Positions 2,099 through 58,163 of a stretch of DNA of 64,000 nt are shown here, in pieces. The notes under the pieces were generated by a model, which saw nothing but the letters and a program-made list of their open reading frames with translations, had not been told where the DNA came from and ran no database searches. Numbering within the stretch: the first letter of the stretch is position 1; each line of letters starts with the position of its first letter. The position numbers were made by a program, and so were the translations under genes. The DNA is from Shigella phage Sfk20. The stretch lies in the sequence record MW341595; one strand, written 5' to 3'.

Positions 2099-2126
2099 TT
2101 TGTGTTCCTCCGTAGTTGATAGGGTA

Positions 2127-2155
2127 ATAATACCACAGAGGAACAGTCTTGTAAA
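2127..2155 (-). promoter_or_regulatory. early (sigma70-type) promoter
   Basis: Reverse complement reads TTTACA-17 nt-TATTAT. Confidence 0.55.
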
Positions 2156-2163
2156 CAACTTTT

Positions 2164-2262
2164 TTAAAAATATTCGTAATAAATGTGAATACCAACTACT
2201 ACTGCTGAAACTTGCGCAACCCACCACGCACAAGCAATAAGCACAGAATTCAAAATTTTCAT
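2164..2262 (-). CDS. small hydrophobic peptide, 32 aa
   Basis: Hand-translated MKILNSVLIACAWWVAQVSAVVVGIHIYYEYF; GAGGT SD. Confidence 0.3.
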   Translation of the reverse strand: MKILNSVLIACAWWVAQVSAVVVGIHIYYEYF

Positions 2263-2373
2263 AATAACCTCATCACAAAAGTAAATGTTAAACAAATTAA
2301 TGGAATACTAATTAACCAAATAAAACACCACCACAATGAACTCATAGTTCAATCTCAACGATTTTCATTTTAC

Positions 2374-2580
2374 TCAATAATCTGCTAAAAGATCGACGAT
2401 TGCATCACGAAGACACTTATTCGCAATACGTTTAAGAGCAATTTCAGTTTCTGGAGCATTTTGAATAATCATTGAATTCAATTCAGCCTCAGCAAACTGA
2501 AGTTCTTTAACTAATTCAGCTTTATATTTTCCTTGCCCTTTCTTAGCTTTTGCTCGTTTTAATTCAGCTGTAGTAAACAT
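2374..2580 (-). CDS. hypothetical protein, 68 aa
   Basis: ORF track 2374..2592 trimmed to ATG 2578-2580 (MFTTAELKRAKAKK...) preceded by GGAGaataaa leader. Confidence 0.55.
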   Translation of the reverse strand: MFTTAELKRAKAKKGQGKYKAELVKELQFAEAELNSMIIQNAPETEIALKRIANKCLRDAIVDLLADY

Positions 2581-2614
2581 TTTATTCTCCAAATCCGTAT
2601 CAGTTGATAGTTGT

Positions 2615-2643
2615 ATAGTACCACAGTCCTTGTGGTATGTAAA
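2615..2643 (-). promoter_or_regulatory. early (sigma70-type) promoter with conserved leader
   Basis: Reverse complement TTTACA-17 nt-TACTAT; followed by repeated leader cassette. Confidence 0.55.
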
Positions 2644-2662
2644 CTGTTTTGTGAAAAATTTT

Positions 2663-3220
2663 TTAAATGGAAAGATACCATCCGTTGTAGTTGCTTTTTC
2701 TTACAACCTTACGAAGGTCTTCTCTATCACCGATGAACTTCGGAGTGTACTGGATGACACCTGGATGAATTTCTTTAGTGTTGAATATAATTATACAGTC
2801 AGCGACCTGATGATTCAGAATGGGCCCTAGATTTATTCCAGAACCGTATGGATACTCTCCGCTGCATCCGGTTGTTACCGAAATCCAACGTGAGTCAGTT
2901 TGATGTGTCTTAACTTCTACACGAAGCCCGCAGTATCTTGGATGCGCCAATACATCCCATGCGTATGTATACGGGTCATTAACATCCTCTTGGCCTTTGT
3001 TAACATACCCGCTTAGCCAATCTGCTACAAAAAACTCTGCGTACACCGCGATACGACATCTTTCGATAACTTCTGCTTTATCCTGGTTCGGGTTTTGTTT
3101 TAAAGAGTATCTTGCTGTATCAGCAATTTTGACCTTCATTTCACTAGTCAAGTCACTGTTCGATAGGGTAAATGTCGGAATCTGAAATAGTCTCTGTAAA
3201 CCCGGATTCGTTTTCTGCAT
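2663..3220 (-). CDS. denB: endonuclease IV
   Basis: 185 aa, same length and map position (between ndd region and rIIB) as T4 DenB. Confidence 0.8.
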   Translation of the reverse strand: MQKTNPGLQRLFQIPTFTLSNSDLTSEMKVKIADTARYSLKQNPNQDKAEVIERCRIAVYAEFFVADWLSGYVNKGQEDVNDPYTYAWDVLAHPRYCGLRVEVKTHQTDSRWISVTTGCSGEYPYGSGINLGPILNHQVADCIIIFNTKEIHPGVIQYTPKFIGDREDLRKVVRKSNYNGWYLSI

Positions 3221-3482
3221 TTAGACTTTCCTTTTTACCGCTGAGATAAGCGTTATATACTTTAAGAGTGCCGTAATAAATTCGGTCATTTTCGTCTAAA
3301 GACTCATGGTCGAGTTCATCAAGTTCCTTTTTATCCATGACTATAACATCATTACAGTAAAGAAACCCAAGTTTTTCGTGACCAAACTCAAATTTATTGC
3401 AGTACACAATATTAGCGTGATGGTTTCCGTGCAGTTTAATCTCTTTTATGTCGGAATCACTGATATTCATACAGTAAATCAT
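3153..3482 (-). CDS. hypothetical protein, 109 aa
   Basis: ORF track; overlaps denB start by about 68 nt in another frame. Confidence 0.45.
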   Translation of the reverse strand: MIYCMNISDSDIKEIKLHGNHHANIVYCNKFEFGHEKLGFLYCNDVIVMDKKELDELDHESLDENDRIYYGTLKVYNAYLSGKKESLNAENESGFTETISDSDIYPIEQ

Positions 3483-3500
3483 AATTTTTCCTTAAAACAA

Positions 3501-3517
3501 AAGGGCCGAAGCCCCTT
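3501..3517 (-). terminator. GC stem-loop (aagggccgaagcccctt) with A/T-rich flanks
   Basis: Inverted repeat read from sequence, just downstream of ORF 3521..3715. Confidence 0.5.
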
Positions 3518-3520
3518 ATT

Positions 3521-3715
3521 TTATTTGAATTGTGCAATTCTTTTTTCTAAACAATCTGCGTAAGATTTCATTGAGATGAACTGTGAAAGCAGTAATTCTT
3601 GCTCAACTTCATTAATTGTTAGAAACTTTGTACTTTCTAAAAATTTGCTCAGTGCATTAATTTTGAGCATTAATTGATCGTATTCTTCTTTTACTCGTGC
3701 TTGATAACCTAACAT
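3521..3715 (-). CDS. hypothetical protein, 64 aa
   Basis: ORF track; flanked by stem-loops at 3501-3517 and 3730-3745. Confidence 0.5.
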   Translation of the reverse strand: MLGYQARVKEEYDQLMLKINALSKFLESTKFLTINEVEQELLLSQFISMKSYADCLEKRIAQFK

Positions 3716-3729
3716 AATTTTCCTTAGTT

Positions 3730-3745
3730 AAGGGCCGAAGCCCTT
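3730..3745. terminator. perfect GC stem-loop AAGGGC-CGAA-GCCCTT overlapping the rIIB stop codon
   Basis: Palindrome read from sequence; orientation ambiguous. Confidence 0.45.
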
Positions 3746-4682
3746 ATTTAAATTGTTCAGTAACGTCTTCAACTACTTCGTATTGGCAGGTACGCATTTT
3801 AGCATCGTTGTAATCAATCGGAATTGATACTACATCGCGAGGATGTACTTTAACTTTTACAACTCGACTAGTTGAACTACCAAAGTGACGAATATAAGAT
3901 TTAGAACACACATGCAGACCACGAGAACAAGTTTGTGTATCATCATCGTTCACACGAGTACGTGGCATTTTAACTACTTTACCAGGACTGTTATCAAAAG
4001 TATTTGAATGACAGTCAAAGTAATTGCTGCGAACTACTTTCCAAGCATAGAAGTAGCCATCTTCTGTAATTTCAATATCGTTTGCTACCAAGAAATCAAA
4101 GAGTCGAGATACCGCTTTTTGGCTTGGGTTTTCCAACAGATTTTCCAGGAACGGAAAATAAAATTCAAAGTTTTCACCTTTTTCCATCGAATCGAGAATA
4201 CGATCAACTAAACCAGACCGCAATTCAATATTTTGATAGAACAAGCTTCCACCTTCAATTCGAACATCACCGGAAATATATTTTTCAACAGCGCGACGAA
4301 CATTAATTTTTTGTGCCGCTTCTTCCAATTTATCTGCAACAAGCAGATTAAGAATTTCCTGGAAGTTTGAATGAGTATTAGGAGTTGCGTTATAAGTTAC
4401 ACCGTCAACAGTAATTGAAATGAATTTTTTAGATGCATTCCAAATAATGTCAGATTTAGCAACTGGAGCAATAGCTACATCGCTATTAACTTTAACTGTA
4501 ATATCACCGCTAATAGTAACTTTAGAGCGCTCAGCTTCTTCAGCATTTTTCAAAACACGACGGATTGTGTCAACCGATACACCTTGCCAATCAGCCAATT
4601 CCTGTTGGGTATAATTACCACTTGAATACAGTTTGACAATTTCAGCTTGTTCGTTTTTGGTCAGGCATTTAATATTGTACAT
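3744..4682 (-). CDS. rIIB: rIIB protein
   Basis: 312 aa, same length as T4 rIIB and directly downstream of rIIA. Confidence 0.9.
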   Translation of the reverse strand: MYNIKCLTKNEQAEIVKLYSSGNYTQQELADWQGVSVDTIRRVLKNAEEAERSKVTISGDITVKVNSDVAIAPVAKSDIIWNASKKFISITVDGVTYNATPNTHSNFQEILNLLVADKLEEAAQKINVRRAVEKYISGDVRIEGGSLFYQNIELRSGLVDRILDSMEKGENFEFYFPFLENLLENPSQKAVSRLFDFLVANDIEITEDGYFYAWKVVRSNYFDCHSNTFDNSPGKVVKMPRTRVNDDDTQTCSRGLHVCSKSYIRHFGSSTSRVVKVKVHPRDVVSIPIDYNDAKMRTCQYEVVEDVTEQFK

Positions 4683-4693
4683 AATTTTCCTTA

Positions 4694-6881: not shown

Positions 6882-7085
6882 TTAATTCATATTGCGTTTA
6901 ATAACTTCAGCAACTTCTAGTAGTTCATCTTTAGTTGCGGTGTCGGATTGAATTTTATCTCTAATATCCTTAAAGCGGTTTTTAAACTCTTCAGCTTCTC
7001 CCATATCGAAAAAGCGTTGAATGATTCTATATTCTCGATGAACTGCTTTATCAAAAAGTTCTAAATTTACTTTATATGATTTCAT
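6882..7085 (-). CDS. hypothetical protein (rIIA.1 position), 67 aa
   Basis: ORF track; sits between rIIA and 39 as in T4. Confidence 0.55.
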
Positions 7086-7110
7086 TTCAATATCCTCATT
7101 TGCCCAATTA

Positions 7111-7139
7111 ATTATACCACATCCTTGTGGTAAAGTAAA
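7111..7139 (-). promoter_or_regulatory. early (sigma70-type) promoter upstream of rIIA.1/rIIA
   Basis: Reverse complement TTTACT-17 nt-TATAAT; -35 overlaps gene 39 stop. Confidence 0.6.
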
Positions 7140-8957
7140 CTACTGGCTCATCCATTCTTTACGAAGGTCAGCATTATCCCCCATGAGCATTTCAAAAAGC
7201 TCTTTCCAGTTCTCAGGAAGTTTAACAACATCATATACCGGGTTTTGAATCATCTCACGATATTCAGATTTTTCCAAAGAGCCAAGTCCCTTAATATAAC
7301 GGATGCTATGTTTAGGTAGAGCATCTTTGGAACTCTCATATTCAGCGACTGTATAAAACCATTCTTGTTTTTTACCGACCTGAGCGATGATTACGGGAGT
7401 TTTGACGAAGCGAATTCTTCCTTGTTCAAACAGTTCTGGCCAATTACTAAAAAATCCGAGCAGAGAAGGATAAATGCTTCCTAGACCATCGTGGTCAGCA
7501 TCAGTCATAATAGCAATATTATGATAATTCAAGTTTTCAGCCTTTTCACCAAGAACTAATCCAGTGATTGCGCAAATATCAAACAGTTCTTTGTTTTTAA
7601 GCATATCAGCATATGACATACCCCAACTGTTGAGAACTTTACCACGTAATGGATAACCGCCATGAAGTTCTTTATCACGAACATCAATAAGATATCCGAT
7701 AGCAGAATCACCCTCAGTCAAGAAAAGAGTCGTGTCAGCATCTTTACCACAAAGATTCGCTTTAATATGTTTATGAACCTTAGCTTTAGAGGCCTTTTTA
7801 GCTGCTTTAGTTTCTGCTGCTTTTTCTGCCGCCAATTTACGAGCCAAGGCAGCTTCAATAATTGGCATTAAAATTGCTTCATTATTTAAAATAGCGCGTG
7901 AAATCTTTTTAGCATCAAGCTGAATATGACTACGAATTTCACCAAATGGAGAAGTCAAACGCTCTTTAGTCTGAGAATCAAATCGCATGTTTTTCATATC
8001 ACGAACAAACATAACGATAGTCAAACATTCTTTAACACGTGCTTTAGTTACATCAATTTTGAACTTACGTTTGATTTGTGGAATAAGGTCTTCACAAATA
8101 TCATCCATAACGCAGTCAATATGATGGCCACCATTCTTAGTATGAATGTTATTGACGTATGTTAATTGACGAAAACCATCCGGTGAACGACCAACCGCAA
8201 TAGAACAATTTTCTTGTTCTTGAACAATAGCATGCTCATCATATTGGCGTGCATATTTCTTAAAATTACCCTGAACCTTTTTACCATTAAAGGTAAATTG
8301 AATATCAGGATAAACTACTGCAAGTGTCTGGAGACGATCTAATGTAATGTCAAGATAAACTTGAGATAGCTCATTAGTTTCAAATGACATAAAATCAGGA
8401 ATGAAAGTAACACGAGTTCCTTTCCATTTTCCAGGAATAGTTTCCCATGATTTATTTTCCATGCCATTTGAACAACGAACTACAATATTATTTTGACCGT
8501 CGCCAGTTTCACCGACAAACATCACAGAAAAAATGTTAGTTAAACTAGAACCAACACCGTTCATACCGCCAGTGACACGTTCTTTATCATCACCGAAGTT
8601 ACCACCTGCTTTTGGAATAGTCCAGGCGGCAACAGGACCGGGAATTTCTTCACCAGTAAGTGTTTTAACCATCGCTTGTGGAATACCACGACCGTTATCT
8701 TCAACTGTTACTTGATTGTTTTTGATAGTAACATTAATTTTATTCGCGAATTTAAACTTAGTACGAATACCTTCATCTACTGAGTTATCGATAATTTCAT
8801 CAATAAGCTTAACAAGACCAGGTACATACTGAACACTTTCCCATTTACCAAACAGAAAGCGCTCATGCATTTCATTAGCGGAAGAGCCAATGTACATGCC
8901 GCTACGCTTTTTGATATGTTCAATATCGCTCAGAATTTTAATTTCATTCTTAATCAT
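7140..8957 (-). CDS. 39: DNA topoisomerase II large subunit, unsplit 39 (39+60 equivalent), 605 aa
   Basis: ATG 8955-8957 (ORF track starts 3 nt earlier at GTG); MIKNEIKILSDIEHIKKRSGMYIGS... GyrB-like; continuous ORF covers the region split into 39 and 60 in T4. Confidence 0.95.
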   Translation of the reverse strand: MIKNEIKILSDIEHIKKRSGMYIGSSANEMHERFLFGKWESVQYVPGLVKLIDEIIDNSVDEGIRTKFKFANKINVTIKNNQVTVEDNGRGIPQAMVKTLTGEEIPGPVAAWTIPKAGGNFGDDKERVTGGMNGVGSSLTNIFSVMFVGETGDGQNNIVVRCSNGMENKSWETIPGKWKGTRVTFIPDFMSFETNELSQVYLDITLDRLQTLAVVYPDIQFTFNGKKVQGNFKKYARQYDEHAIVQEQENCSIAVGRSPDGFRQLTYVNNIHTKNGGHHIDCVMDDICEDLIPQIKRKFKIDVTKARVKECLTIVMFVRDMKNMRFDSQTKERLTSPFGEIRSHIQLDAKKISRAILNNEAILMPIIEAALARKLAAEKAAETKAAKKASKAKVHKHIKANLCGKDADTTLFLTEGDSAIGYLIDVRDKELHGGYPLRGKVLNSWGMSYADMLKNKELFDICAITGLVLGEKAENLNYHNIAIMTDADHDGLGSIYPSLLGFFSNWPELFEQGRIRFVKTPVIIAQVGKKQEWFYTVAEYESSKDALPKHSIRYIKGLGSLEKSEYREMIQNPVYDVVKLPENWKELFEMLMGDNADLRKEWMSQ

Positions 8958-8984: not shown

Positions 8985-9009
8985 ATTATACTCCGGTAAT
9001 CATAAAGCT
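8985..9009 (-). promoter_or_regulatory. candidate MotA-dependent middle promoter upstream of 39
   Basis: Reverse complement aGCTTTA-12 nt-TATAAT (one mismatch to the MotA box). Confidence 0.35.
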
Positions 9010-9027
9010 AAAGGCCCGAAGGCCTTT
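9010..9027. terminator. perfect GC stem-loop AAAGGCC-CGAA-GGCCTTT
   Basis: Palindrome read from sequence between the 39.1-like ORF and 39. Confidence 0.45.
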
Positions 9028-9287
9028 TATTTAAAACGGATAGTCGAATCCTTGAAGAATAGACCAGAACATACGGTTCCTTCTACTTTCTGCCCGGTAG
9101 GTCCAATAGCACGAAATCCAGTATGTTGGAAATCATTTTCAGAGCAACCGAACCAATTGTATCCAGTGATTTCAATATTAGTAAACCCACTTGAAGACAA
9201 AACTTTGGTTGCATTATCAGCATCAGTACATCCTACTAAAGATACTGCTAATACTAATGCCGCGATAGAACGATTAACATATTTCAT
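9027..9287 (-). CDS. putative lipoprotein (39.1 position), 86 aa
   Basis: ORF track trimmed to ATG 9285-9287; MKYVNRSIAALVLAVSLVGC... signal peptide with lipobox-like LVGC. Confidence 0.5.
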   Translation of the reverse strand: MKYVNRSIAALVLAVSLVGCTDADNATKVLSSSGFTNIEITGYNWFGCSENDFQHTGFRAIGPTGQKVEGTVCSGLFFKDSTIRFK

Positions 9288-9291
9288 AATT

Positions 9292-9663
9292 TCACTCAAA
9301 TTTAATGGCTTGAAGGAGAATAATAATTCTTAAACGGCTTCTTTCATCTTTAACTGTAAAAGAAAGAGGGTCGCCAGATTTCATAGTGATAGTGCATTCA
9401 AAATCAAAATCTTCAGAAACTTCTTCGAAGAAGTCAAATTCTTCATCATAAATTAGAACATTACTCTGAAAACTGTGAAGAATTTTTCCATCATTTCCAG
9501 ATGCTGTACTAATCATTGTAACATTATTACCTTTCATATCTTCAACGATAAATTCGCTTGTAGATATTACGGCATTAATAGAACCATTCCTATAAATAGA
9601 AGAAAGTAGATATTTCTTTTCTTCACCTTCGCGAACACGATATTTCTTACCGATTTTAAACAT
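9292..9663 (-). CDS. hypothetical protein (39.2 position), 123 aa
   Basis: ORF track trimmed to ATG 9661-9663. Confidence 0.5.
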   Translation of the reverse strand: MFKIGKKYRVREGEEKKYLLSSIYRNGSINAVISTSEFIVEDMKGNNVTMISTASGNDGKILHSFQSNVLIYDEEFDFFEEVSEDFDFECTITMKSGDPLSFTVKDERSRLRIIILLQAIKFE

Positions 9664-11758: not shown

Positions 11759-12259
11759 TTATCTCATTTCAATAAAATCTATAAGTTCAGCATGGGATTT
11801 ACGGAACATTACTTGATGTCCGCCAATGATAACTTGGTCATCTGGCACTTCGTATACAGCAAGATAAAATCCTTTAGAAGATAATTCTTCACGCTCTTCT
11901 CGTGTGAACCATCTCATCATATCATATTCACTAGCGAAAGCAAAATGATAAAGAGCTATAAACCATCCTGGAATATGATATTCTACTCCAACATAATCTT
12001 TCTTGAACTTAGTATTAATTACTATATTAGCGTTTTTAACTAACAGTTTATCTTCATGTGGTACAGGAATTCTTTTATTATCATCACTATGATGCATAAA
12101 ATTAGGTCTACTATAACCTACCCGTAATAGCCACTCTTCGCTCCATGAATCTATTATACTCCTGTACGGCGTTATTTGAACACAAAGATTTCGACGTATT
12201 GTTATAGCATCTTCATAATCAAGAATACTAAACGATGATTCAACACGATAAATTTTCAT
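11759..12259 (-). CDS. hypothetical protein, 166 aa
   Basis: ORF track 11759..12298 trimmed to ATG 12257-12259 (MKIYRVESS...) with GAGGA SD. Confidence 0.5.
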   Translation of the reverse strand: MKIYRVESSFSILDYEDAITIRRNLCVQITPYRSIIDSWSEEWLLRVGYSRPNFMHHSDDNKRIPVPHEDKLLVKNANIVINTKFKKDYVGVEYHIPGWFIALYHFAFASEYDMMRWFTREEREELSSKGFYLAVYEVPDDQVIIGGHQVMFRKSHAELIDFIEMR

Positions 12260-12286
12260 TTTATTATCCTCAGTAGCTATGGTGTT

Positions 12287-12315
12287 ATAATACCACAACT
12301 AACAGAGGAAGTAAA
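12287..12315 (-). promoter_or_regulatory. early (sigma70-type) promoter
   Basis: Reverse complement TTTACT-17 nt-TATTAT. Confidence 0.55.
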
Positions 12316-13501: not shown

Positions 13502-13733
13502 ATTTAATCAGCAGCTTACAGACACTTTCATCTAATGTAATTACCGTGTCTGTATTACTATGATATGATTGTTTTTCAATTCGTTTAATTGCTAGTATAG
13601 TATCACTTATAAGATTAAGCTTATAAAGGAGCTCAGCTCCTGTTACCATAACACTGAGGTTATCTTGCTTATCAGTGTGCTTCTTTATACCATCTATTAG
13701 ACGATTTAAATATTTTGAATTGATGTTAATCAT
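13473..13733 (-). CDS. small hypothetical protein, 86 aa
   Basis: ORF track; ATG 13731-13733. Confidence 0.45.
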   Translation of the reverse strand: MININSKYLNRLIDGIKKHTDKQDNLSVMVTGAELLYKLNLISDTILAIKRIEKQSYHSNTDTVITLDESVCKLLIKFEEAIRGNN

Positions 13734-13739
13734 ATATCC

Positions 13740-15059
13740 TCACACATAAAACACATCATAACGACCACGAGTGACACCAACATAAAGAAGCTGCTGAGCC
13801 AATTCAGCATCTGCATAATGAATACAAGGCGTATAGATGAAAGCCCGGTCTACAGACATGCCCTGAGCTTTGTGGAATGTTGATGCAGGAAGTGCTTTCA
13901 CTTTACTAAACTGTGATTTAGCATCCCAAAAATCACTCCACGGAGCTTTTCCACCTTTATTCCAATTTTTATAAGTTTCTGCAGTTTTACCTAAAAATAA
14001 GTTAAACTTATACAGCTCTTCATCAGATGAAATTATTTTAATCTTTTCACGATAATATTCATCATCGCCGTAAGTTTCTACCGTTAAATCCCAATGACGA
14101 ATTAGATATTCTCCAGAAACACCACGAGCTTTAACAAATGTTGATGTATACTCTGCTTCTATAATACGAACTAATTGTCCGTTATTAAAAATAATTTCTG
14201 ACACAGGCTTTCCATCAATTTTATATGTTTTAATTAATGGTTCCTGCATTACAATAATTTCACCAACGATAAAATCTTTATCAGTTTCAAAAATCTTTTT
14301 GCGAATAATGTTATTTAACTTATCAACAGATTTATTCGTAAATGCCATGACGCGATTTTCAAACAAATCATCTAGCGATTTTACGATTGAAAAATAATTT
14401 ACCATAAAATCGCGTAAAGCGGTATCACCAGTAAATCCACGTACTCCATGCCCGTCAACAACTTTATCATAAATCCACTTACCGTTGCGAACATCAGTAG
14501 CTACATCAATAATAGGAGCATTACTGCGTTTAACTTCAGTGAGTTCACACTGATAAAAATCTTTATGCGTAAAGAATGGACTGATATAAGCAGTGTTTTC
14601 TCCTGGGTCAACAGGTCTAATTTGCTTATTATCGCCTATTCCAATTATAGTACACCACGGCGGGATAGTTGAAAGCAGAATTTTAAATAGCTTTCTATCA
14701 TACATTGACACTTCGTCGCAGATTAATACTCTGCATTTAGCTAAATCCGGTACTTCTTTTTGTTCAAAAAGAACGTTTTCTTCATATGTTACTGGGTTAA
14801 TTTTAAGAATACTGTGAATAGTACTCGCTTCTTTCCCTGATAGTTTTGAAAGAATCTTTTTAGCTGCATGAGTAGGAGCTGCTAAAATAATGCCAGTTTC
14901 GCCTGTAGATATTAAAGCTTCAATGATGAACTTAGTAAGAGTAGTCTTACCAGTACCAGCAGGTCCATTAATAGTTACATGATGTTTCTTTTCTTTAATA
15001 GCCCTCATAACGATGTTAAAGGCATTTTTCTGGCCTTCGGTCAAATCATCAAATGTCAT
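13740..15059 (-). CDS. dda: Dda DNA helicase (SF1)
   Basis: 439 aa; Walker A GPAGTGKTT; sequence recognised as T4 Dda-like. Confidence 0.95.
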   Translation of the reverse strand: MTFDDLTEGQKNAFNIVMRAIKEKKHHVTINGPAGTGKTTLTKFIIEALISTGETGIILAAPTHAAKKILSKLSGKEASTIHSILKINPVTYEENVLFEQKEVPDLAKCRVLICDEVSMYDRKLFKILLSTIPPWCTIIGIGDNKQIRPVDPGENTAYISPFFTHKDFYQCELTEVKRSNAPIIDVATDVRNGKWIYDKVVDGHGVRGFTGDTALRDFMVNYFSIVKSLDDLFENRVMAFTNKSVDKLNNIIRKKIFETDKDFIVGEIIVMQEPLIKTYKIDGKPVSEIIFNNGQLVRIIEAEYTSTFVKARGVSGEYLIRHWDLTVETYGDDEYYREKIKIISSDEELYKFNLFLGKTAETYKNWNKGGKAPWSDFWDAKSQFSKVKALPASTFHKAQGMSVDRAFIYTPCIHYADAELAQQLLYVGVTRGRYDVFYV

Positions 15060-45871: not shown

Positions 45872-46048
45872 TCAAGTATTGTAAAACATTCGATGCAATC
45901 GCTTATATTGCCGAATCATCTTTTTAGTAGGACGAGAATAAGTTCCTACACAAGTGGTCATATTAGAGTCGGTATGACTTCCTTTAATAAAAAGTTTCCA
46001 AACCTTACCACCATTTAACTTTTCAGTATAAATTAATTCGGTTTTCAT
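45872..46048 (-). CDS. small hypothetical protein, 58 aa
   Basis: Hand-translated MKTELIYTEKLNGGKVWKLFIKGSHTDSNMTTCVGTYSRPTKKMIRQYKRLHRMFYNT. Confidence 0.3.
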   Translation of the reverse strand: MKTELIYTEKLNGGKVWKLFIKGSHTDSNMTTCVGTYSRPTKKMIRQYKRLHRMFYNT

Positions 46049-46512
46049 TAAAACGCTCGGTCAGAAAAAGAATTTTGAGTTTCAAGCCATTCAATATATT
46101 CTGCCGCAGCTTGCATCAAATTTCCTTCATAACCATCGTTATTTTCTTGTGCAGCTAATTTAGCTAATGCGTATGAAATACGTTCACCTTGAAAAGCGGC
46201 TTCAGGTTTATGAATAACTTGATCAACTCGTTCTACGACCTCTTCAATTTCGCCATTTTCTACTGATTCAGTATTCCATAAGCACCAATAGGCAGTTGGC
46301 TTATCGTAGATGTTAATAATCTTTCCACCAGAAAGTTCAATTTCAATAATTCCAGTATCAGGTTCTATATCATCTTCACATTCTTTTACAAGTTCACGAA
46401 CTTTAAAGACAGTACCTGCACCAAGTTCCGGCCAGTAATTACACAGCTCTTTATCAGCACGATTAATTTTAAACCACTTATCTACTGCAATCATATCCCA
46501 TCTCCATATCAA
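46048..46512 (-). CDS. hypothetical protein (pin position), 154 aa
   Basis: ORF track; synteny with T4 pin only. Confidence 0.4.
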   Translation of the reverse strand: MIWRWDMIAVDKWFKINRADKELCNYWPELGAGTVFKVRELVKECEDDIEPDTGIIEIELSGGKIINIYDKPTAYWCLWNTESVENGEIEEVVERVDQVIHKPEAAFQGERISYALAKLAAQENNDGYEGNLMQAAAEYIEWLETQNSFSDRAF

Positions 46513-49123: not shown

Positions 49124-50125
49124 TTACTTAATTAATTGTAAAGCTTGTTCAAGACGATCCAGGCGATTAACAGATTCTTCCCAAATCCTTTTAGCCTGCT
49201 CATATTCTTTCTGCGCTTTATTAGAAATTTCTAGAACTTCCTTATAAGCTTTTTCTAATGCAATAACTTCTGGACGAATTTCTACCGGTTCAGGTGAATC
49301 ATCAAGATTATCCATTAGTTCCTCAAGGGTAGTTTCTTCTTTAGGAGTATTCACAATTTCTTCACATTTTTGTTGGTAAATTTCTTTATCAGTCGGTGAG
49401 TACGCACATTTCACTTCACGAAGGCTAATTATAATTTTATATCCTTCCCAACCACACATATTTTTGAAAGGATATGTATGAATACTTTTTACAGTTTCCA
49501 TACAGCCCAAAGCCGCCTCTAATTGATAAGTTATAGTGCTAGCAATTGAGAAAAATTTATTAATATTCTTTTGGTTAGCGTTTGGTGTAAAAAATCCATA
49601 ATTCACAAAAATAGCTACTTTATTTTTATCAAGCTCATTTTCTTTTACGATAATCATATCAGAAGCCAAAGGATGAATTTGACGATAATCGCCATAACAT
49701 AATTTAGAAGCTGATTTTAGAATTTGTCCTTTGAAAAGTCTGAAATTACTAATCCACCGACGAGTAAAAATATTCTCAGGGTCTTCTTTATTATTAAGAT
49801 GATAAGAATTAACATCACCGAACCAATTATATCCTACTACATCTTTAGTTCGTTTAATTTCTTTCCCAAATTTACTAAGAATATCTCTGTTGACTAAGTA
49901 TGAAAGAAGACGAGAACCTTTAAAGGTTTCCTTAATGTCATCTTTATATGTACGACTAGAAATTTCACAAACTTCATAAATAAATTTGTCGGAAGAAACA
50001 ATACTTGCACTAGTATTATTGATCCATTGATTGATAATAGAAATCACACTATTCTGACTAGACATAGGTTTAACTTTATCATCAATAACGCTATTGAACG
50101 ATTTGATATATTCGTTACGAGTCAT
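49124..50125 (-). CDS. hypothetical protein with C-terminal coiled coil, 333 aa
   Basis: ORF track 49124..50176 trimmed to ATG 50123-50125 with GAGGAG SD. Confidence 0.55.
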   Translation of the reverse strand: MTRNEYIKSFNSVIDDKVKPMSSQNSVISIINQWINNTSASIVSSDKFIYEVCEISSRTYKDDIKETFKGSRLLSYLVNRDILSKFGKEIKRTKDVVGYNWFGDVNSYHLNNKEDPENIFTRRWISNFRLFKGQILKSASKLCYGDYRQIHPLASDMIIVKENELDKNKVAIFVNYGFFTPNANQKNINKFFSIASTITYQLEAALGCMETVKSIHTYPFKNMCGWEGYKIIISLREVKCAYSPTDKEIYQQKCEEIVNTPKEETTLEELMDNLDDSPEPVEIRPEVIALEKAYKEVLEISNKAQKEYEQAKRIWEESVNRLDRLEQALQLIK

Positions 50126-50153
50126 ATTAATCTCCTCAGTAGAAAGTAAGAAC

Positions 50154-50182
50154 ATTATACCACATCCTTGTGGCAAAGTAAA
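50154..50182 (-). promoter_or_regulatory. early (sigma70-type) promoter
   Basis: Reverse complement TTTACT-17 nt-TATAAT. Confidence 0.6.
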
Positions 50183-52568: not shown

Positions 52569-53096
52569 TTATGCGAGTACCGTCTTTAACCGTTCTTCAA
52601 ACTTCCGAAGAGTATTTTGGCGTTCAGCTCTTTGCTTTTTGTAAGTTTCAATACGCTCTGAAATGAGAGTGTATCGTTCATTTACCGATTCTTTCATAAA
52701 ATCAGGAATTTCACGAGAAGCTTTAATCTCGTCAAATTTATCAATAACAGCTTGCTCTTCAGCAATTAAGTTATCATACATCAAAATATCTTTCTTGATG
52801 AACTCAATATCTTCTTGAGTTACACGAGATAATTTAGATGCTTTATCCTTTTTGTACTGTTCATTAGTATCACGAGACCAGTGTAATGTACGATTTTTAT
52901 TCGTATTCTTGTAAATTTCTACAATACCGATCTCATCGATAATAACGATCCAATTCCAACGGGATTTGTAAATTTGTCCTCCATCAACAGTGATTTCACC
53001 TCCGATTGAGATGTCATTAAAGAACTTGCTTTGTGCCTCAGATTTAAATTTACCATCGTTGTAATTTACCAAGTTGAAAATATCTTTAGCGTTCAT
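52569..53096 (-). CDS. hypothetical protein, 175 aa, C-terminal coiled coil
   Basis: ORF track; ATG 53094-53096 with GGAGG SD. Confidence 0.5.
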   Translation of the reverse strand: MNAKDIFNLVNYNDGKFKSEAQSKFFNDISIGGEITVDGGQIYKSRWNWIVIIDEIGIVEIYKNTNKNRTLHWSRDTNEQYKKDKASKLSRVTQEDIEFIKKDILMYDNLIAEEQAVIDKFDEIKASREIPDFMKESVNERYTLISERIETYKKQRAERQNTLRKFEERLKTVLA

Positions 53097-53124
53097 TTTC
53101 TGTTCCTCCGTAGTTGATAGTTGT

Positions 53125-53153
53125 ATAGTACCACAGAGGAACAGTCTTGTAAA
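53125..53153 (-). promoter_or_regulatory. early (sigma70-type) promoter
   Basis: Reverse complement TTTACA-17 nt-TACTAT; cassette near-identical to 2107-2156. Confidence 0.6.
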
Positions 53154-53156
53154 CCA

Positions 53157-53471
53157 CTAAAAGAAACTTCTTTCACAATTTTTTCCACTGAACCATGCAC
53201 TTACCGCTTTCTTAGTCTCAGGAGCAGTGTTATCCATAAACCATTCAAAGGCAGCCTTTTTGTGATTCTGGAGGGCTTCTCGGGCTTTAATCTGCTCACG
53301 GTCTATTAACACTAACATATGAGCCTTTCTTGTCACCATGGGCTTCTTATGATTTTTTGAATACTCCCAGTCATTTGTCCATCGCATTGTCGTTGCGAAC
53401 TGAAATACTGCTTCTTTAATTTTAGTTTCGTAAATTTCACGAGCCTTTGAGTATAACATCACTACCTCCAT
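53157..53471 (-). CDS. hypothetical protein, 104 aa
   Basis: ORF track. Confidence 0.45.
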   Translation of the reverse strand: MEVVMLYSKAREIYETKIKEAVFQFATTMRWTNDWEYSKNHKKPMVTRKAHMLVLIDREQIKAREALQNHKKAAFEWFMDNTAPETKKAVSAWFSGKNCERSFF

Positions 53472-53560: not shown

Positions 53561-54529
53561 TTATTTCAGAAGAGTAACCTCAGCGATTTCTTCCCAACCA
53601 TTTTTGTCGGTCATAATAAAGTCAGCAAGATAAAGAGCAGTACGCAGTGAAACATTGCGTAAACGATTAACATTAACTTTCATCCATGATAATGCTTTAT
53701 AAGTTTCTTCATCAGAAAGACCACGCTTTTGCATCATGTCAGTTGAAAGAATAACATCTTCAACCCTGACCATAATTTCTTCATTAGTGTGAACACCCAA
53801 ATCTAAATAAACTGAGCGGGACACTAATGCTTGTAAATGTGGAGCAAGTTTAGTACCACGGTCTAATTCGCGGTCAATGTCAACGTTTGTGATAAAAACA
53901 ATCGTTCCTTTAAATTCAAACTCACGCTCAATGCCTTTTTCTTCTAAGTAAGAAGATGCAGTGCTCCAGCAGACTTTACGGGTCTCTCCAGTGTCCAGAG
54001 CGGCTTTTAGAAGATTAAGAATGTCCATATCAGAGAAAACATCCACATCATCAATCAAAAGGACAGAATTCTCTTCACGATTATTCCAAAGCTGCTCATA
54101 AAGACCAATACCAGAGATTTTACCATTAATGCTTTTATATTCAATGTATCCAATATCATTTGCTTTATTTAAAGCTTTATCTAAAGAATACGTTTTACCA
54201 ATACCTGCTGCGCCAGAGATAATTAATGAACGAATATTTCCGTTAATAATACCATTCGTCATCATTCCCATAACATTAAATCTTTTATTAATGCGGGTTT
54301 TCATATCTTCATATGATTCTTTAACTTCTTCAACTTTTACACCATCATATGAAATATCTGATTTGTAAACCCAAACACCGCGACGTTTACCGTCAATTTC
54401 AACAAAAACTTTACCATCTCCTTGCGCATCTACTGGAGCATTATCTGGGAACCATTCGCCTAAGAGCTCAAAAGTTCCAGAGATTTCTTTACCGAAGTAG
54501 ATACCCTTATTGATAGTTACAGTTTTCAT
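53561..54529 (-). CDS. P-loop NTPase, 322 aa
   Basis: ORF track 53561..54598 trimmed to ATG 54527-54529 (GGAGaataaa leader); Walker A GAAGIGKT, Walker B LLIDDVD. Confidence 0.6.
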   Translation of the reverse strand: MKTVTINKGIYFGKEISGTFELLGEWFPDNAPVDAQGDGKVFVEIDGKRRGVWVYKSDISYDGVKVEEVKESYEDMKTRINKRFNVMGMMTNGIINGNIRSLIISGAAGIGKTYSLDKALNKANDIGYIEYKSINGKISGIGLYEQLWNNREENSVLLIDDVDVFSDMDILNLLKAALDTGETRKVCWSTASSYLEEKGIEREFEFKGTIVFITNVDIDRELDRGTKLAPHLQALVSRSVYLDLGVHTNEEIMVRVEDVILSTDMMQKRGLSDEETYKALSWMKVNVNRLRNVSLRTALYLADFIMTDKNGWEEIAEVTLLK

Positions 54530-54574
54530 TTTATTCTCCAAATCCGTATCAGTTGATAGTTGTATAGTACCATA

Positions 54575-54592
54575 GGGAGCCCGAAGGCTCCC
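54575..54592 (-). terminator. GC stem-loop gggagcc-cgaa-ggctccc
   Basis: Palindrome just downstream of the NTase stop, directly abutting a -10 element and conserved leader. Confidence 0.45.
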
Positions 54593-54594
54593 TA

Positions 54595-55608
54595 TCATTT
54601 ATAATAACTTCGGTGGTTTTCAAGATAAACCCTCTCAAGGAAGTCATCCCAGAAACCCATGTCTACTTTTTGCTGCATACCGTTCTTAGAAGCTTCAATG
54701 GATGCTGCTTCTACTTGATCGACCACATCTTCCAAAAACTCTTGAACAGTTTTAAATGGATGTTTACCCAACTTCACGTCGAGAATAAATGGAGCGTCTT
54801 GAAGTGGATAGACTAAGTCACCAGTTTTGTAAATTTCCAATAGTTGGAGCCCACCACGACAAGCATGACTCAGAGCTTTCCAGTCAATGCCCTCATTCGC
54901 TTCAGCCTTACGAGCACGTTCGCCGTATTCAGCATCAAGTTTATTCAAAGATTGCTTAAGCTCGATAAGAGAAAGTGTTGTTTGATATTTACGACCCAAC
55001 ACAGTGTAGAACGTTTGTGGACCTGTTTTCTCATGATTATGGAATACCCATTCACAGAATTCGTTCTCTGGAAGACGATGCTTAATATCTTCAACTTTAG
55101 TTCGACGCTGCTTAATGGAACCGTCTTCTTGGTAATCAACCCATTGCTCAGGGATTTGATTAACTACTTTCAATACATCACGTAATGCGGCCAAACGAGA
55201 ACCCTTAACACCGTATTTAGAAGCTTGCTTGCGAACATATCCTAAGTAGGATTTCATGTTAGTCGTATAAAAACGAGAACGATTGTCTTGAATAAACTTC
55301 CATACATCAGGCAAATCAGATTTAATTACTAGTTCCGGTGGAGTGTGGAGCATATCCAATGCTACAGTTTCACCATCTGCTGCTAATTTAAAGAAATACT
55401 TAAGACTGTATAGTTCATGGTCAATATCATCTTTAGTGTTTTTAGATGATGTGTTGTTAGTGTTTTTACTCATATGCTCTTTAACATTTCCGATAAGAAT
55501 ATCACGAGCAGGAGGAACAAAGATTTCTTTAAAATCTACATCAGATTCTGGAGTAGAAGTTCCATAAAGATGACTACCAAAATAGCTTTTCATTACTGTT
55601 TTCATCAT
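54595..55608 (-). CDS. putative nucleotidyltransferase (Pol-beta superfamily fold), 337 aa
   Basis: N-terminal GS-x9-DxD signature (GSHLYGTSTPESDVDF) in ORF-track translation. Confidence 0.55.
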   Translation of the reverse strand: MMKTVMKSYFGSHLYGTSTPESDVDFKEIFVPPARDILIGNVKEHMSKNTNNTSSKNTKDDIDHELYSLKYFFKLAADGETVALDMLHTPPELVIKSDLPDVWKFIQDNRSRFYTTNMKSYLGYVRKQASKYGVKGSRLAALRDVLKVVNQIPEQWVDYQEDGSIKQRRTKVEDIKHRLPENEFCEWVFHNHEKTGPQTFYTVLGRKYQTTLSLIELKQSLNKLDAEYGERARKAEANEGIDWKALSHACRGGLQLLEIYKTGDLVYPLQDAPFILDVKLGKHPFKTVQEFLEDVVDQVEAASIEASKNGMQQKVDMGFWDDFLERVYLENHRSYYK

Positions 55609-56066
55609 TCAGCCTTATATTCAATAACAGGACATACTTTAGCTTTACGCACTTTTAAAAATTCGACGATAATAGATTTCTTGGGTTGAATAGGAGGTAA
55701 ACCTTTATACGCCCTATCAATATTTTCTACATGTAAAGCATAATCCTTTTTCCATTTATAATCTTTATATTTTTCATGCAGTTGTGCAGGAATAACAAAT
55801 GAACCAATAATAAGTAAAACAAGCAAAATGGCAAGTATAAATGCTGATGGAATAAGAGTCCATAAACTACCAAAAATAAACCATTTCTGCATGATTTCTG
55901 CACAGATAATAGTTAGACCTGTGAGTATAGTACATCCGAAAAAAGAAACGAAAAATGTAGGGATAACAATAGACCAAAAGTATGCGCACAGTGTCTTAGG
56001 TCGTTTCCATTCATCATTAAACAGTTTGAATAATTTATAGTGCCAAGAGTTTTCATTAATAATCAT
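55605..56066 (-). CDS. membrane protein, 153 aa
   Basis: ORF track; several hydrophobic helices. Confidence 0.5.
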   Translation of the reverse strand: MIINENSWHYKLFKLFNDEWKRPKTLCAYFWSIVIPTFFVSFFGCTILTGLTIICAEIMQKWFIFGSLWTLIPSAFILAILLVLLIIGSFVIPAQLHEKYKDYKWKKDYALHVENIDRAYKGLPPIQPKKSIIVEFLKVRKAKVCPVIEYKAE

Positions 56067-56068
56067 AA

Positions 56069-56590
56069 TTATCCTTTCATTGAAGGTGTAACAGTTGTTA
56101 AATACTTAATCATAGCTTCAGCTTCTGATTTTGATAATGAAATTTCTCCATTGTTTTGACGAATAGAAATAAAATCCGGATGACGGTCACCACCAGCTTT
56201 TAAAACACACATATAAGTATCAGTTTCATCTTCAATATCTGAAATAATTGAAGCAGTTCCGCATGAATGTGGTTTTTGATAAATCAATGCAGCTTTTCTT
56301 CCACCGTTTGACTGTTCATAAACTTTTAACACATCAAACAAATCGCTTCTTTTATCAATAGCTAAGATGTTGTTTTCATCTTCAATGTTAAATCCTTCGG
56401 ATACTTCATAAAGTGTCACCCATAAATCACCTATATCGATAGTAGCATTTCCTTTTCCACGACTTTCAAGAATGTGACAAATTTTCTTAATTTCATCATA
56501 ACTCATTTTAATAATATCATCTCCTTGACTAAGGAAGATGTCATTTTTAAATTCAACGCGAATTAAACCACTTCCACTTGAAATAAACAT
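56069..56590 (-). CDS. hypothetical protein, 173 aa; paralogue of 56597..57154
   Basis: Shared GFNIE(D/S)E and C-terminal I-RQ...E(A/E)...YL..V.P.M blocks. Confidence 0.5.
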   Translation of the reverse strand: MFISSGSGLIRVEFKNDIFLSQGDDIIKMSYDEIKKICHILESRGKGNATIDIGDLWVTLYEVSEGFNIEDENNILAIDKRSDLFDVLKVYEQSNGGRKAALIYQKPHSCGTASIISDIEDETDTYMCVLKAGGDRHPDFISIRQNNGEISLSKSEAEAMIKYLTTVTPSMKG

Positions 56591-56596
56591 ATTTCC

Positions 56597-57154
56597 TCAC
56601 TTTGAAATCATAGTTGGAATGACAGAATCAAGATAAGTCTTTAGCGCAATAGCTTCGTCTTTGGTAAATGTGACAATATGCGATCGAAAATCATCAATTT
56701 GACGAATAGTTAAGACATCACCATCTTCATAGCATTTTGATACGTTTAAAACAGTTTCATCATTCTGATTGCAAGCGTTAGTAATAATAGCATTGCAATT
56801 TTTGAGCCATTTTAAACTATGTTTTCTTTCATTAGAATAATAAAAATATTTAATCTTATCTATAAAACTATCCCAATGAATAACTGATAAACATATTGAC
56901 TCGCTTTCAATATTAAATCCTGGGCATGAAGAATAAAAATGAATTTTATGCTCATCATTAATGCTTACAATTTTATCAGTATAAGGATTTTCAATTTGGG
57001 TTAAATGAATGATTTCACTAGGCGTAAAATACATCATATCATCTTCTTGCGTCAAACGATACATATTATTTACTTTTTCTATAGCTAATTCACCAAAAAG
57101 TGAACTAACTTCTAATACTAATCGTTTCATATTGATTCTCTTCGACTCACTCAC
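56597..57154 (-). CDS. hypothetical protein, 185 aa; paralogue of 56069..56590
   Basis: ORF track (GTG start; alternative ATG at 57130). Confidence 0.5.
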   Translation of the reverse strand: MSESKRINMKRLVLEVSSLFGELAIEKVNNMYRLTQEDDMMYFTPSEIIHLTQIENPYTDKIVSINDEHKIHFYSSCPGFNIESESICLSVIHWDSFIDKIKYFYYSNERKHSLKWLKNCNAIITNACNQNDETVLNVSKCYEDGDVLTIRQIDDFRSHIVTFTKDEAIALKTYLDSVIPTMISK

Positions 57155-57156
57155 AA

Positions 57157-57261
57157 TTACATACTCCTTTGAATAATATCAATAATGTTGTTCACCAGAT
57201 TATAAGTAAACATTGGGTAATTATATTGAATCATCACATACACAACAAACAAAACTTTCAT
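57157..57261 (-). CDS. small upstream ORF, 34 aa
   Basis: AAGGAG SD and ATG 57259-57261; stop 2 nt before the GTG start of the downstream gene. Confidence 0.3.
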   Translation of the reverse strand: MKVLFVVYVMIQYNYPMFTYNLVNNIIDIIQRSM

Positions 57262-57289
57262 TCTCTTCTCCTTGACAGTTGACAAGATT

Positions 57290-57318
57290 ACTATACCATA
57301 ACCTTGCCAACTTGTAAA
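57290..57318 (-). promoter_or_regulatory. early (sigma70-type) promoter
   Basis: Reverse complement TTTACA-17 nt-TATAGT. Confidence 0.55.
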
Positions 57319-57321
57319 CCA

Positions 57322-57495
57322 TTAAATGACGTTTTCAATAAAATTCTGAAGCTTTGTGTGAGCATCAACCATGATTTTCATTTCTTCCTTTGCGAAAGCT
57401 GTACCTCTTTCTCGAGCAGAATACTCATAGTCAGAAACTGCATTAGCATATTCTTCAATTAGCTTCATTAAAAACATCTGCTTTTCAGTTTTCAT
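57322..57495 (-). CDS. small hypothetical protein, 57 aa
   Basis: Hand-translated MKTEKQMFLMKLIEEYANAVSDYEYSARERGTAFAKEEMKIMVDAHTKLQNFIENVI; AGGTGG SD. Confidence 0.4.
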   Translation of the reverse strand: MKTEKQMFLMKLIEEYANAVSDYEYSARERGTAFAKEEMKIMVDAHTKLQNFIENVI

Positions 57496-57679
57496 TATTC
57501 CACCTAATCATTTCAAGATATTGAACTAACTTAGCTTTGGATTTATCCAAATCCTTTTTAGCTGCTTCTATACCATCGTATGAGTATCCTTCACAATGCT
57601 CAACTGCTAATTGGTATGAATCTATTTCAATATCACGTGCTAATTTAATGATTTTTTCAAACTGTTCACGTGTTAGCAT
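57485..57679 (-). CDS. hypothetical protein, 64 aa
   Basis: ORF track. Confidence 0.45.
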   Translation of the reverse strand: MLTREQFEKIIKLARDIEIDSYQLAVEHCEGYSYDGIEAAKKDLDKSKAKLVQYLEMIRWNNEN

Positions 57680-57681
57680 AC

Positions 57682-57921
57682 TTAAACTCTCGTATTATGA
57701 TCGATAATTTCATCAAGAAACATATCTAAAGCTTCTACAGCATTATCAACTTTAGCTTCAAGTTCTTCAGCACCTTTATTTGCAATGCCCGACGAAAACC
57801 AAGCAAAGTCACTAAGTTCCTCATCTGCTTTGCGAATTAAAGCTACCAATTCTTTAATTTTATCTGCTTGTTCAATGCTAATCATTATTCCACCACATAT
57901 GAAAGAGAGAATATTGCACAC
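57682..57921 (-). CDS. hypothetical protein, 79 aa
   Basis: ORF track. Confidence 0.45.
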
Positions 57922-58073
57922 GCCATGTGAGTTGCAGCTTCATCACACATATCATAACGTTTCTTAAGAAGTTCTACAAGTTCTTCACTAGTAACGTCAT
58001 CCATGTTGACGAAAAAATCACCATTAATGATGACGTAGATGTTTCCTTCTTGATTGAGTGCTTCAATTTTCAT
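57885..58073 (-). CDS. hypothetical protein, 62 aa
   Basis: ORF track 57885..58118 trimmed to ATG 58071-58073 with GAGGAG SD. Confidence 0.4.
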
Positions 58074-58100
58074 GATGTTCTCCTCTTTATCCGATAGTTG

Positions 58101-58129
58101 TATAGTATCACAGCTCAAATGGAAAGTAA
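58101..58129 (-). promoter_or_regulatory. early (sigma70-type) promoter
   Basis: Reverse complement TTTACT-17 nt-TACTAT. Confidence 0.6.
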
Positions 58130-58145
58130 ACCGGTAAAATGAAAA

Positions 58146-58163
58146 AAGTCTCCCGAAGGAGAC
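58146..58163 (-). terminator. rho-independent terminator
   Basis: Stem gtctcc/ggagac, loop cgaa, U-run on the minus strand; same module as 19632-19651. Confidence 0.6.

Follow-up and report, generated by a model that had tools for sequence, protein, structure and literature searches.

Recombining T4-type immediate-early promoter and leader cassettes as a probable account of six dispersed repeats in Shigella phage Sfk20

Introduction

Shigella phage Sfk20 (sequence record MW341595) was analysed over one stretch of 64,000 nt, hereafter called the window, in which a sequence-only reading had flagged six dispersed sites with a near-identical promoter and 5' leader. These sites are named below by the first coordinate of the -10 region (2127, 2615, 28264, 53125, 54564, and 58102). 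Judged from their sequence, they are immediate-early sigma70 promoters with 5' leaders of the T4 type. We consider it very probable that they are modules of the kind described as promoter-early stem-loop (PeSL) cassettes, which recombine with one another and head a few gene slots.

The window belongs to a Tequatrovirus and is 94-98% identical to T4-like coliphages and Shigella phages (megablast); against T4 itself, the identity is 94-97%. Local alignment with T4 (NC_000866) places positions 1-4690 at T4 164.8-168.9 kb (gene 52 through ndd, denB, and rIIB) and positions 4694-64000 at T4 1-64.3 kb (rIIA through vs.7). The minus strand holds all window genes. The alignment identifies the window as the classical T4 early/middle region, including the 'hyperplastic' runs of small non-essential genes.

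The cassette recombination model is already published for T4 and its relatives (PMC2839356; PMC4122927). PeSLs were defined in RB49 and phi1 as units that combine an A/T tract with a strong sigma70 promoter, a stem-loop, and a Shine-Dalgarno (SD) sequence with ATG; the stem-loop often lies between -35 and -10 or overlaps the -10. The units recur in hyperplastic regions, undergo recombination, and can give rise to mini-circles (Arbiol et al., 2010; PMC2839356). Promoter-overlapping stems were read there as terminators or attenuators. The PeSL definition was later extended to T4 and PST with the consensus TTTACW-N17-TAYWAT; the exchange at ndd.4/.5 served as the worked example, and 'half' PeSLs and non-PeSL events such as 49.2/49.3 were also noted (Comeau, Arbiol and Krisch, 2014; PMC4122927). 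Early promoters were also reported 5' of many novel open reading frames (ORFs) (Nolan et al., 2006; PMC1524935).

Materials and methods

Gene content was compared between the window and 14 comparators, namely T4, T2, Ac3, UGKSEcP2, ECp13, and nine IMG/VR loci. BLAST matches between the window and the comparators were chained by dynamic programming, and orthologous cassettes were found via BLAST anchors. Gene identities were transferred from the T4 annotation.

A generic sigma70 consensus scan was no better than shuffled sequence in this AT-rich window (78 hits against 85.7, and 92 against 83.5); hence, a scored T4-specific pattern was used instead. The pattern consisted of TTTAC(A/T), a spacer of 16-18 bp, and TA...T, and sites scored higher with G at -36, with TGG ahead of the -10, and with an A/T tract. 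Work on the T4 early promoter consensus was reportedly carried out by Liebig and Rueger in 1989 and by Wilkens and Rueger in 1996.

Results

Early promoters of the window

About 17 strong T4-type early promoters were found, all on the minus strand and each followed by an SD-ATG 25-45 nt downstream. They precede ndd.4, the slot after denB, rIIA.1, motB, motB.2, srd, modB, mrh.2, sp, dmd, imm.1, 55.6, nrdC.4, nrdC.8, mobD.2, mobD.5, and regB. GTTTAC and TGG-TA..T are common to all 17, and CTATCA is often present. With a GTTTAC -35, a 17-bp spacer, a TGn-extended -10, an upstream UP-like A-tract, and a position 5' of early genes on the early strand, they resemble the T4 early promoter class in every respect listed.

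Similarity and modular build of the cassettes

The cassettes consist of an A/T-rich UP-like tract, a -35 of GTTTAC(A/T), a 17-bp spacer, a TGn-extended -10, and the start region CTATCAA; toward the 3' end, a GGAG-type SD leads into an A-rich run and then the ATG. The six flagged copies, and three further cassettes or promoters related to one of them or to each other, are as follows (U, S, and L denote the upstream, spacer, and leader modules defined below).

2096-2180, minus strand: ndd.4 cassette, with A/T tract, -35 at 2150-2155, S1, -10 at 2127-2132, L2, and ATG at 2096-2098
2578-2668, minus strand: cassette heading the slot after denB, with U1, -35 at 2638-2643, -10 at 2615-2620, and L1 at 2578-2614 including the ATG; its spacer contains a small CCACA..TGTGG hairpin
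28227-28316, minus strand: imm.1 cassette downstream of gene 43, with U1, S1, and a variant of L1; -35 at 28287-28292 and -10 at 28264-28269
53094-53180, minus strand: nrdC.8 cassette, with S1 and L2; -35 at 53148-53153 and -10 at 53125-53130
54527-54595, minus strand: truncated nrdC.10 cassette, with L1 at 54527-54563, TGn and -10 at 54564-54569, and the nrdC.11 terminator hairpin at 54575-54592
58071-58165, minus strand: mobD.5 cassette, with terminator hairpin at 58147-58164, U2, -35 at 58125-58130, and -10 at 58102-58107
19558-19652, minus strand: mrh.2 cassette, partner of the 58.1-kb copy, with a 29-nt exact run in the hairpin tail and U2
7083-7139, minus strand: rIIA.1 early promoter, with S2
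50123-50182, minus strand: nrdC.4 early promoter, with S2, partner of the rIIA.1 promoter

The similarity of the flagged copies extends well beyond the promoter elements. The 21-mer GTTGATAGTTGTATAGTACCA occurs four times at no more than one mismatch, against none expected from 100 shuffles. A repeat search of the window aligned 2094-2160 with 53092-53158 at 90% over 67 nt, and the segments 2574-2626, 28223-28275, and 54523-54575 with one another at 87-92% over 53 nt; all of these repeats are direct because every copy lies on the minus strand. When 18 early promoters were aligned on the -10, the median pairwise identity of the class was 45% over -45..+32, compared with up to 81% for flagged pairs, and the contrast was sharper in the leader (84-100% for flagged pairs, class median 34%). 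It is this sharing of spacer and leader beyond the consensus that sets the flagged subset apart from the T4 early promoter class at large. The longest exact runs are 46 nt (2615/54564), 29 nt (58102/19587), and 26 nt (2127/53125), with a further run of 25 nt. Related copies beyond the flagged six are the pairs 7111/50154 and 22795/57290, and 42309.

The aligned copies show a mosaic of modules (U1/U2, S1/S2, and L1/L2) and not one repeat. The upstream block U1, AAAAAATTTTTCACAAAAC, is found in 2615 and 28264 and partly in 42309; the spacer S1, AAGACTGTTCCTCTGTGG, in 2127, 28264, and 53125; the leader L1, ACAACTATCAACTGATACGGATTTGGAGAATAAAATG, in 2615, 28264, and 54564; and the leader L2, ..CTATCAACTACGGAGGAACAnAAAATG, in 2127 and 53125. 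The spacer module S2, CCACAAGGATGTGG, is in the rIIA.1 and nrdC.4 promoters, which are 97% identical over 32 nt. Copy 58102 has only TACTATACAACTATC in common with the L1 and L2 copies and shares a terminator tail and the U2 block with 19587.

The sequence-only reading had held that the sites share far more than a promoter consensus, that they are directly oriented, and that 2101-2160 and 53101-53160 are about 90% identical, and the figures above bear out all three statements. Its single consensus with variants at six sites has to be given up: the quoted string is essentially the 28236-28293 copy alone, and the others share one half of it. The leader ascribed to 2107-2156 and 53105-53153 is actually CTACGGAGGAACAnAAAATG, different from GGAGAATAAAATG, and 58091-58129, which had been grouped with the others, has only a 15-nt core in common with them; its true partner is 19562-19633 (75% over 72 nt). 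The proposed promoter anatomy of -35, 17-bp spacer, -10, and leader up to the ATG holds except at 54536-54570, where there is no -35.

Compared with the PeSL definition, TTTAC(A/T)-N17-TA...T is present at 2127, 2615, 28264, 53125, and 58102 and absent at 54564. Upstream tracts are present, for example U1 at 2615 and 28264 and TTTTTAAAAAAGTTG at 2127. Stem-loops occur as upstream terminator hairpins (58147-58164, 19631-19652, and 54575-54592) or as promoter-overlapping stems (2127 and 53125); the stem at 2615 is weak (7 bp inside the spacer), and 28264 has none. The 3' end is the SD and start codon of the next gene. The L1, L2, and regB leaders also contain GGAG in the SD followed by an A-rich tract, as in RegB/S1 sites, and the SD of these candidate sites is predicted to be accessible in transcripts from the cassette's own promoter.

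The missing -35 at 54.5 kb has a traceable origin. There, the hairpin GGGAGCCTTCGGGCTCCC (the nrdC.11 terminator) directly abuts TATGGTACTAT. Since the terminator T-run, UP element, -35, and spacer are intact at nrdC.10 in T4, Ac3, UGKSEcP2, L026, and L027, the window carries a 52-bp deletion of these parts. L030 has a similar, non-identical fusion of hairpin and -10 at this locus.

Segmental gene duplication was also considered as a source of the copies and was rejected, as the genes on either side differ from copy to copy, without any relation, and the homology stops at the cassette edges.

Exchange between copies

Neither of the -10/+1 variants TATTATTACCC and TACTATACAAC is tied to one locus, and among genomes they trade places between ndd.4 and nrdC.8: the ndd.4-type variant stands at nrdC.8 in L030, and the nrdC.8-type variant at ndd.4 in L037. 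The variant CTATCAACTACTGATACGG occurs in T4 only, at two paralogs (denB slot and imm.1); the orthologs of these two in the other phages, and T4's own nrdC.10 copy, have CTATCAACTGATACGG. ORF B, an alternative gene of the denB slot described below, is preceded by L1 in L034 and L035 and by an L2-like leader in L037 and UGKSEcP2. Because of the locus-swapped variants, the T4-only paralog variant, and the leader switch at ORF B, the sequences indicate ectopic conversion or recombination over convergence. Orthologous cassette copies are highly conserved across genomes. Within a handful of genomes, at least 13 different genes, T4 motA among them, have the same -10/+1 core in front of them.

The near-identical subset would thus reflect shared descent together with continuing exchange of segments, through gene conversion or through homologous recombination between ectopic copies. 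The homology for such exchange, presumably by the phage's own UvsX-type system, would come from exact runs of 20-46 bp, and the module mosaic would be its product. That the repeats serve as substrates for recombination, as the sequence-only reading had suggested, agrees with the mosaic modules and the swapped variants among relatives; a role as the main driver of gene shuffling does not follow from the comparison of gene content.

Gene slots behind the cassettes

Because each copy lies directly in front of a start codon, the cassettes head gene slots, and these may be places where small accessory genes are gained, lost, or replaced. At three of the six flagged sites, the slot has at least three alternative gene contents.

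The denB slot (2370-2578/2602) is empty in T4 and occupied by ORF A in the window; in UGKSEcP2 and L034-L038, it holds an unrelated gene, ORF B (PHROG 2390).

2374-2580, minus strand: ORF A, 68 aa, PHROG 4535 (function unknown), the slot gene behind the 2615 cassette

The upstream end of this slot is exactly leader..AAAATG, and the downstream end is ..TAAAATG of a 9-codon mini-ORF. This mini-ORF (2342-2368; eight residues, MKIVEIEL, and a stop) has its own SD and overlaps the ndd.6 start in ATGA. In T4, it stands directly behind the L1 cassette; in L034, ORF B contains it, in frame, as its C-terminus. The mini-ORF seems to be a constant joint at the downstream side of the denB slot.

The slot between gene 43 and imm.1 (28222-28251) is empty in the window and in T4; it is filled by gene Y behind L2 in T2 and Ac3, and by the unrelated gene Z behind L1 in UGKSEcP2. 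In the slot between nrdC.11 and nrdC.10 (54521-54575), relatives have zero, two, or three extra small genes, each group with its own cassettes, and T2 has a 670-bp insert instead. The T2 insert (L044, PV648364, 9669-10154; at about window position 54575) contains a 161-aa ORF with its own early promoter, which matches the C-terminal part of PHROG 832, 'RNA polymerase ADP-ribosylase' (E = 2e-23). The remaining slot genes belong to phage families of unknown function. Slot events have one end in the leader and the other usually at about 10 bp of SD-ATG microhomology.

Pairing between spacer and Shine-Dalgarno sequence

In RNA that reads through an L2-type cassette from upstream, the spacer UGUUCCUCUGUGG is predicted by folding to pair with the SD region CUACGGAGGAACA in stems of 13-15 bp. 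The pairing elements at these and other early promoters are as follows.

2133-2145 with 2103-2115, minus strand: ndd.4 spacer and SD arms, 13-bp stem, dG -21 kcal/mol, z -4.7
53131-53143 with 53101-53113, minus strand: nrdC.8 spacer and SD arms, 15-bp stem, dG -25.7 kcal/mol, z -5.4
62448-62506, minus strand: regB early promoter, spacer arm 62487-62501 complementary to SD arm 62455-62469
12257-12315, minus strand: motB.2 early promoter, spacer 12292-12309 complementary to leader/SD 12267-12283
17453-17510, minus strand: modB early promoter, -10/+1 region 17476-17484 pairing with SD 17456-17465
22763-22823, minus strand: dmd early promoter, 14-bp inverted repeat astride the -10, arms 22803-22816 and 22783-22796; paralog of the 57.3-kb copy
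57259-57318, minus strand: mobD.2 early promoter, hairpin straddling the -10 like that of dmd, arms 57298-57311 and 57278-57291

When promoter halves were swapped, a promoter's own spacer/leader complementarity exceeded that of mismatched pairs at 7 of 17 promoters (ndd.4, motB, motB.2, dmd, nrdC.8, mobD.2, and regB). In the read-through context, the SD was predicted to be mostly paired at 9 of 18 promoter junctions, against 15% of 93 controls (Fisher p = 0.002). The SD was predicted to be accessible in all own-promoter transcripts, with starts assumed at about 7 nt after the -10 (Wilcoxon p = 3e-5).

The pairing recurs in divergent relatives, although the IMG/VR and metagenome scan returned 8-11 T4-like loci per query, so that covariation is based on few lineages. 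Five regB lineages (100, 77, 68, 60, and 57% protein identity) keep perfect spacer-SD complementarity of 10-15 bp with differing flanks, and RNAalifold found five pairs with compensatory change in this stem on a MAFFT alignment, which is not structure-aware. Orthologs of nrdC.8 at 70% identity follow the same pairing logic with other bases (CTCCAGTAG / CTACTGGAG). The 14-bp stem astride the -10 of dmd and mobD.2 is 100% paired in eight sequences, with seven variable pairs of which two changed on both sides; these two hairpins leave out the SD.

The modB leader (17453-17487) forms a 14-pair stem between the -10/+1 region and the SD and ATG (TATGATAGCTTC...GGAGGCTATCATG). It was flagged by the terminator scan, yet has no clear U-run.

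The hairpins of T4 e, soc, 49, and I-TevI sequester the ribosome-binding site (RBS) and contain an internal promoter; late transcripts that start inside are translatable, and early read-through transcripts are not. Predicted structures at ndd.4, nrdC.8, and regB have the same layout, with the SD in the 3' arm, the 5' arm upstream of the assumed start, and covariation, and we propose the same consequence, an SD exposed only in promoter-proximal transcripts. Here, however, the hairpin holds an early sigma70 promoter, whose own spacer serves as the 5' arm, and the predicted effect would confine translation to the immediate-early burst instead of the late period.

We propose, tentatively, that a sizeable subset of T4-type early promoters has an anti-SD spacer, such that only RNA from the own promoter would be translated and the SD/RegB site of read-through RNA would be buried. 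In L2-type copies and at several other early promoters, read-through RNA from upstream early or middle promoters would have its RBS in a stem of 10-15 bp, and RNA from the own promoter would start inside the loop and stay translatable. The spacer-SD stem is possibly a translational gate, and possibly a protection from RegB, that separates promoter-proximal from read-through RNA. Two T4 reviews (PMC3014915 and PMC2988021) make no mention of spacer-SD pairing, and older literature may have it; this pairing is possibly the only new element of the present analysis.

Other repeats and differences from T4

A second dispersed family consists of near-identical intergenic hairpins, AAGGGCCGAAGCCCTT, with flanking A/T (repeat families D3, D7, and D11), at 3483-3520, 3730-3757, 9002-9032, 31150-31187, 33095-33132, 37805-37842, and 41444-41481. 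On either strand, some of them have terminator-like scores. Arbiol et al. (PMC2839356), with reference to Mosig 1998, mention that GGGC/GCCC motifs occur at T4 deletion endpoints.

Several features of T4 are absent from the window, namely the division of the topoisomerase gene by gene 60/mobA, segF, dam, segA, mobB, mobC, the nrdD intron with I-TevII, and mobD. These differences and a replacement at beta-gt lie at 7475-7540, 19942-20556, 25767-26714, 39031-39056, 43522-43545, 44821-44824, and 55609-56572. In place of the T4 beta-gt region stands a 282-aa ORF (25857-26705), whose T2 and UGKSEcP2 counterparts are annotated as beta-glucosyl-HMC-alpha-glucosyltransferase. Window-specific extra segments relative to T4, made up of small ORFs or intergenic sequence, are found at 693-842, 3234-3430, 9289-9661, 13510-13740, 40607-40868, 45917-46059, and 60067-60434; all seven are at junctions without early-promoter cassettes.

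Discussion

The flagged sites are best explained as T4-type immediate-early promoter and leader modules that exchange segments and head a few gene slots. By analogy with the T4 literature, each cassette would drive a burst of early expression, and its GGAG and A-run would form a RegB/S1 cleavage site; a stem-loop goes with the cassette, upstream as a terminator or over the promoter. The likeness to PeSLs is close: an A/T tract, a sigma70-type promoter, a stem-loop, an SD-ATG at the 3' end, and many direct copies in hyperplastic early regions, with ndd.4/.5 as the published example. PeSLs are described as adjoining indels between close relatives; in the window, three of the six flagged sites head multi-allelic slots, with no enrichment over other gene junctions. 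There are two differences. In T4 and PST, the stem-loop is just upstream of the promoter (PMC4122927), whereas several stems here overlap the promoter and pair with the SD or +1, as in RB49; and cassettes are present at only about 4 of some 30 gene-content events in the window. Replacement of genes between regulatory motifs of neighbouring small genes also resembles the T-even internal-protein loci (Repoila et al., 1994, cited by both PMC4122927 and PMC2839356), although the locus is another one and the homology here is a cassette of 40-60 bp at one end and about 10 bp of SD-ATG at the other.

Several points weigh against this explanation. About 30 distinct indel or replacement events separate the window from the comparators, and only about four touch any early-promoter cassette. 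Polymorphic junctions were no more frequent at cassettes (3/17) than elsewhere (33/113; one-sided Fisher p about 0.9), nor was the six-site family significantly enriched (2/5 against 34/125); the junction at 54564 was missed by the crude ORF caller, and its addition by hand brings these counts to 4/18 and 3/6. With about 4 of 30 events at cassettes and no significant Fisher test, cassettes account for only a minority of the gene-content change in the window. The earlier suggestion that cassettes mark gene-content boundaries thus stands for three multi-allelic slots and fails as a general rule, as there is no enrichment over other junctions. Many events are insertions of homing endonucleases or introns in T4 (mobA/60, segF, segA, mobB, mobC, I-TevII, and mobD), others end at about 10 bp of SD-ATG microhomology, and no early promoter was found in inserts at cassette-less junctions. 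Even in slot events, the end away from the cassette has only about 10 bp of homology, and selection for expression behind a strong promoter could give the slot pattern without crossover between cassettes. Promoter activity, start sites, and RegB cleavage are all predicted. With regard to the pairing, S1 occurs at 28264 without L2 as its partner, and L1 forms no strong hairpin; thus, the anti-SD feature is unnecessary for promoter function and not universal. The stems may also have a role at the DNA level or, following Arbiol et al., as terminators or attenuators.

This last possibility can be taken as a reading in its own right, in which repeats and slots are as described above and the promoter-overlapping stems are insulators that act on upstream transcription, not on translation. 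The RB49 stem-loops lie mostly between -35 and -10 or over the -10, and terminator activity was reported for one of them (PMC2839356); in the window, the 19587 and 58102 promoters lie downstream of terminator hairpins with T-runs, as does the 54564 copy in relatives, and the SD is outside the dmd and mobD.2 hairpins. The spacer-SD stems are another matter: no U-run follows them at ndd.4, nrdC.8, regB, or motB.2, the SD is the 3' arm in each of the five regB lineages, and predicted SD occlusion is specific to promoter-bearing junctions. We regard an insulator function as rather unlikely.

Pure functional convergence, with selection toward one optimum (UP, -35, TGn/-10, start, and RegB/S1 site) and no role for recombination, appears improbable. 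The motifs shared by all 17 promoters, the conservation of orthologs, and the lack of a statistical excess of breakpoints at cassettes speak for it, and T4 early promoters are known to share a consensus beyond the sigma70 elements (Hinton review, PMC2988021). However, the identity covers positions without class consensus, namely the spacer AAGACTGTTCCTCT and the leader CTGATACGGATTT; identity is only about 45% among other early promoters that look just as strong; and block-wise mosaicism with paralog-specific and locus-swapped variants bears the signature of exchange. A dedicated mobile element, that is, a 'gene cassette' system comparable to integron attC cassettes, site-specific or based on mini-circles and equipped with a recombinase of its own, was rejected as very improbable even though gene-plus-cassette units occur as alternative inserts in fixed slots and PeSL mini-circles were detected for RB49/phi1 (PMC2839356), since the slots hold no recombinase or integrase gene but members of small phage families of unknown function, the position of the junctions varies (leader, CTATCAA, and SD-ATG) with no conserved crossover core, and most indels of the window are without cassettes.

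Recombining promoter and leader cassettes as an explanation are confirmatory, as they rediscover a published mechanism of genome plasticity in T4-like phages. The added value is the base-by-base description of module swapping and of three multi-allelic accessory-gene slots; at the same time, the PeSL model is tempered, as most gene-content changes in this 64-kb early region are without cassettes. If the proposed pairing is true, synthesis of RegB, Ndd.4, NrdC.8, and MotB.2 would be hard-wired to the first minutes of infection, and the coupling of spacer and leader would explain why both parts travel as one recombining cassette. If confirmed, the pairing would be a further, simple gate on translation in the T4 early programme and would matter for phage engineering, as genes inserted behind such cassettes, or read through them, would meet predictable effects on translation.

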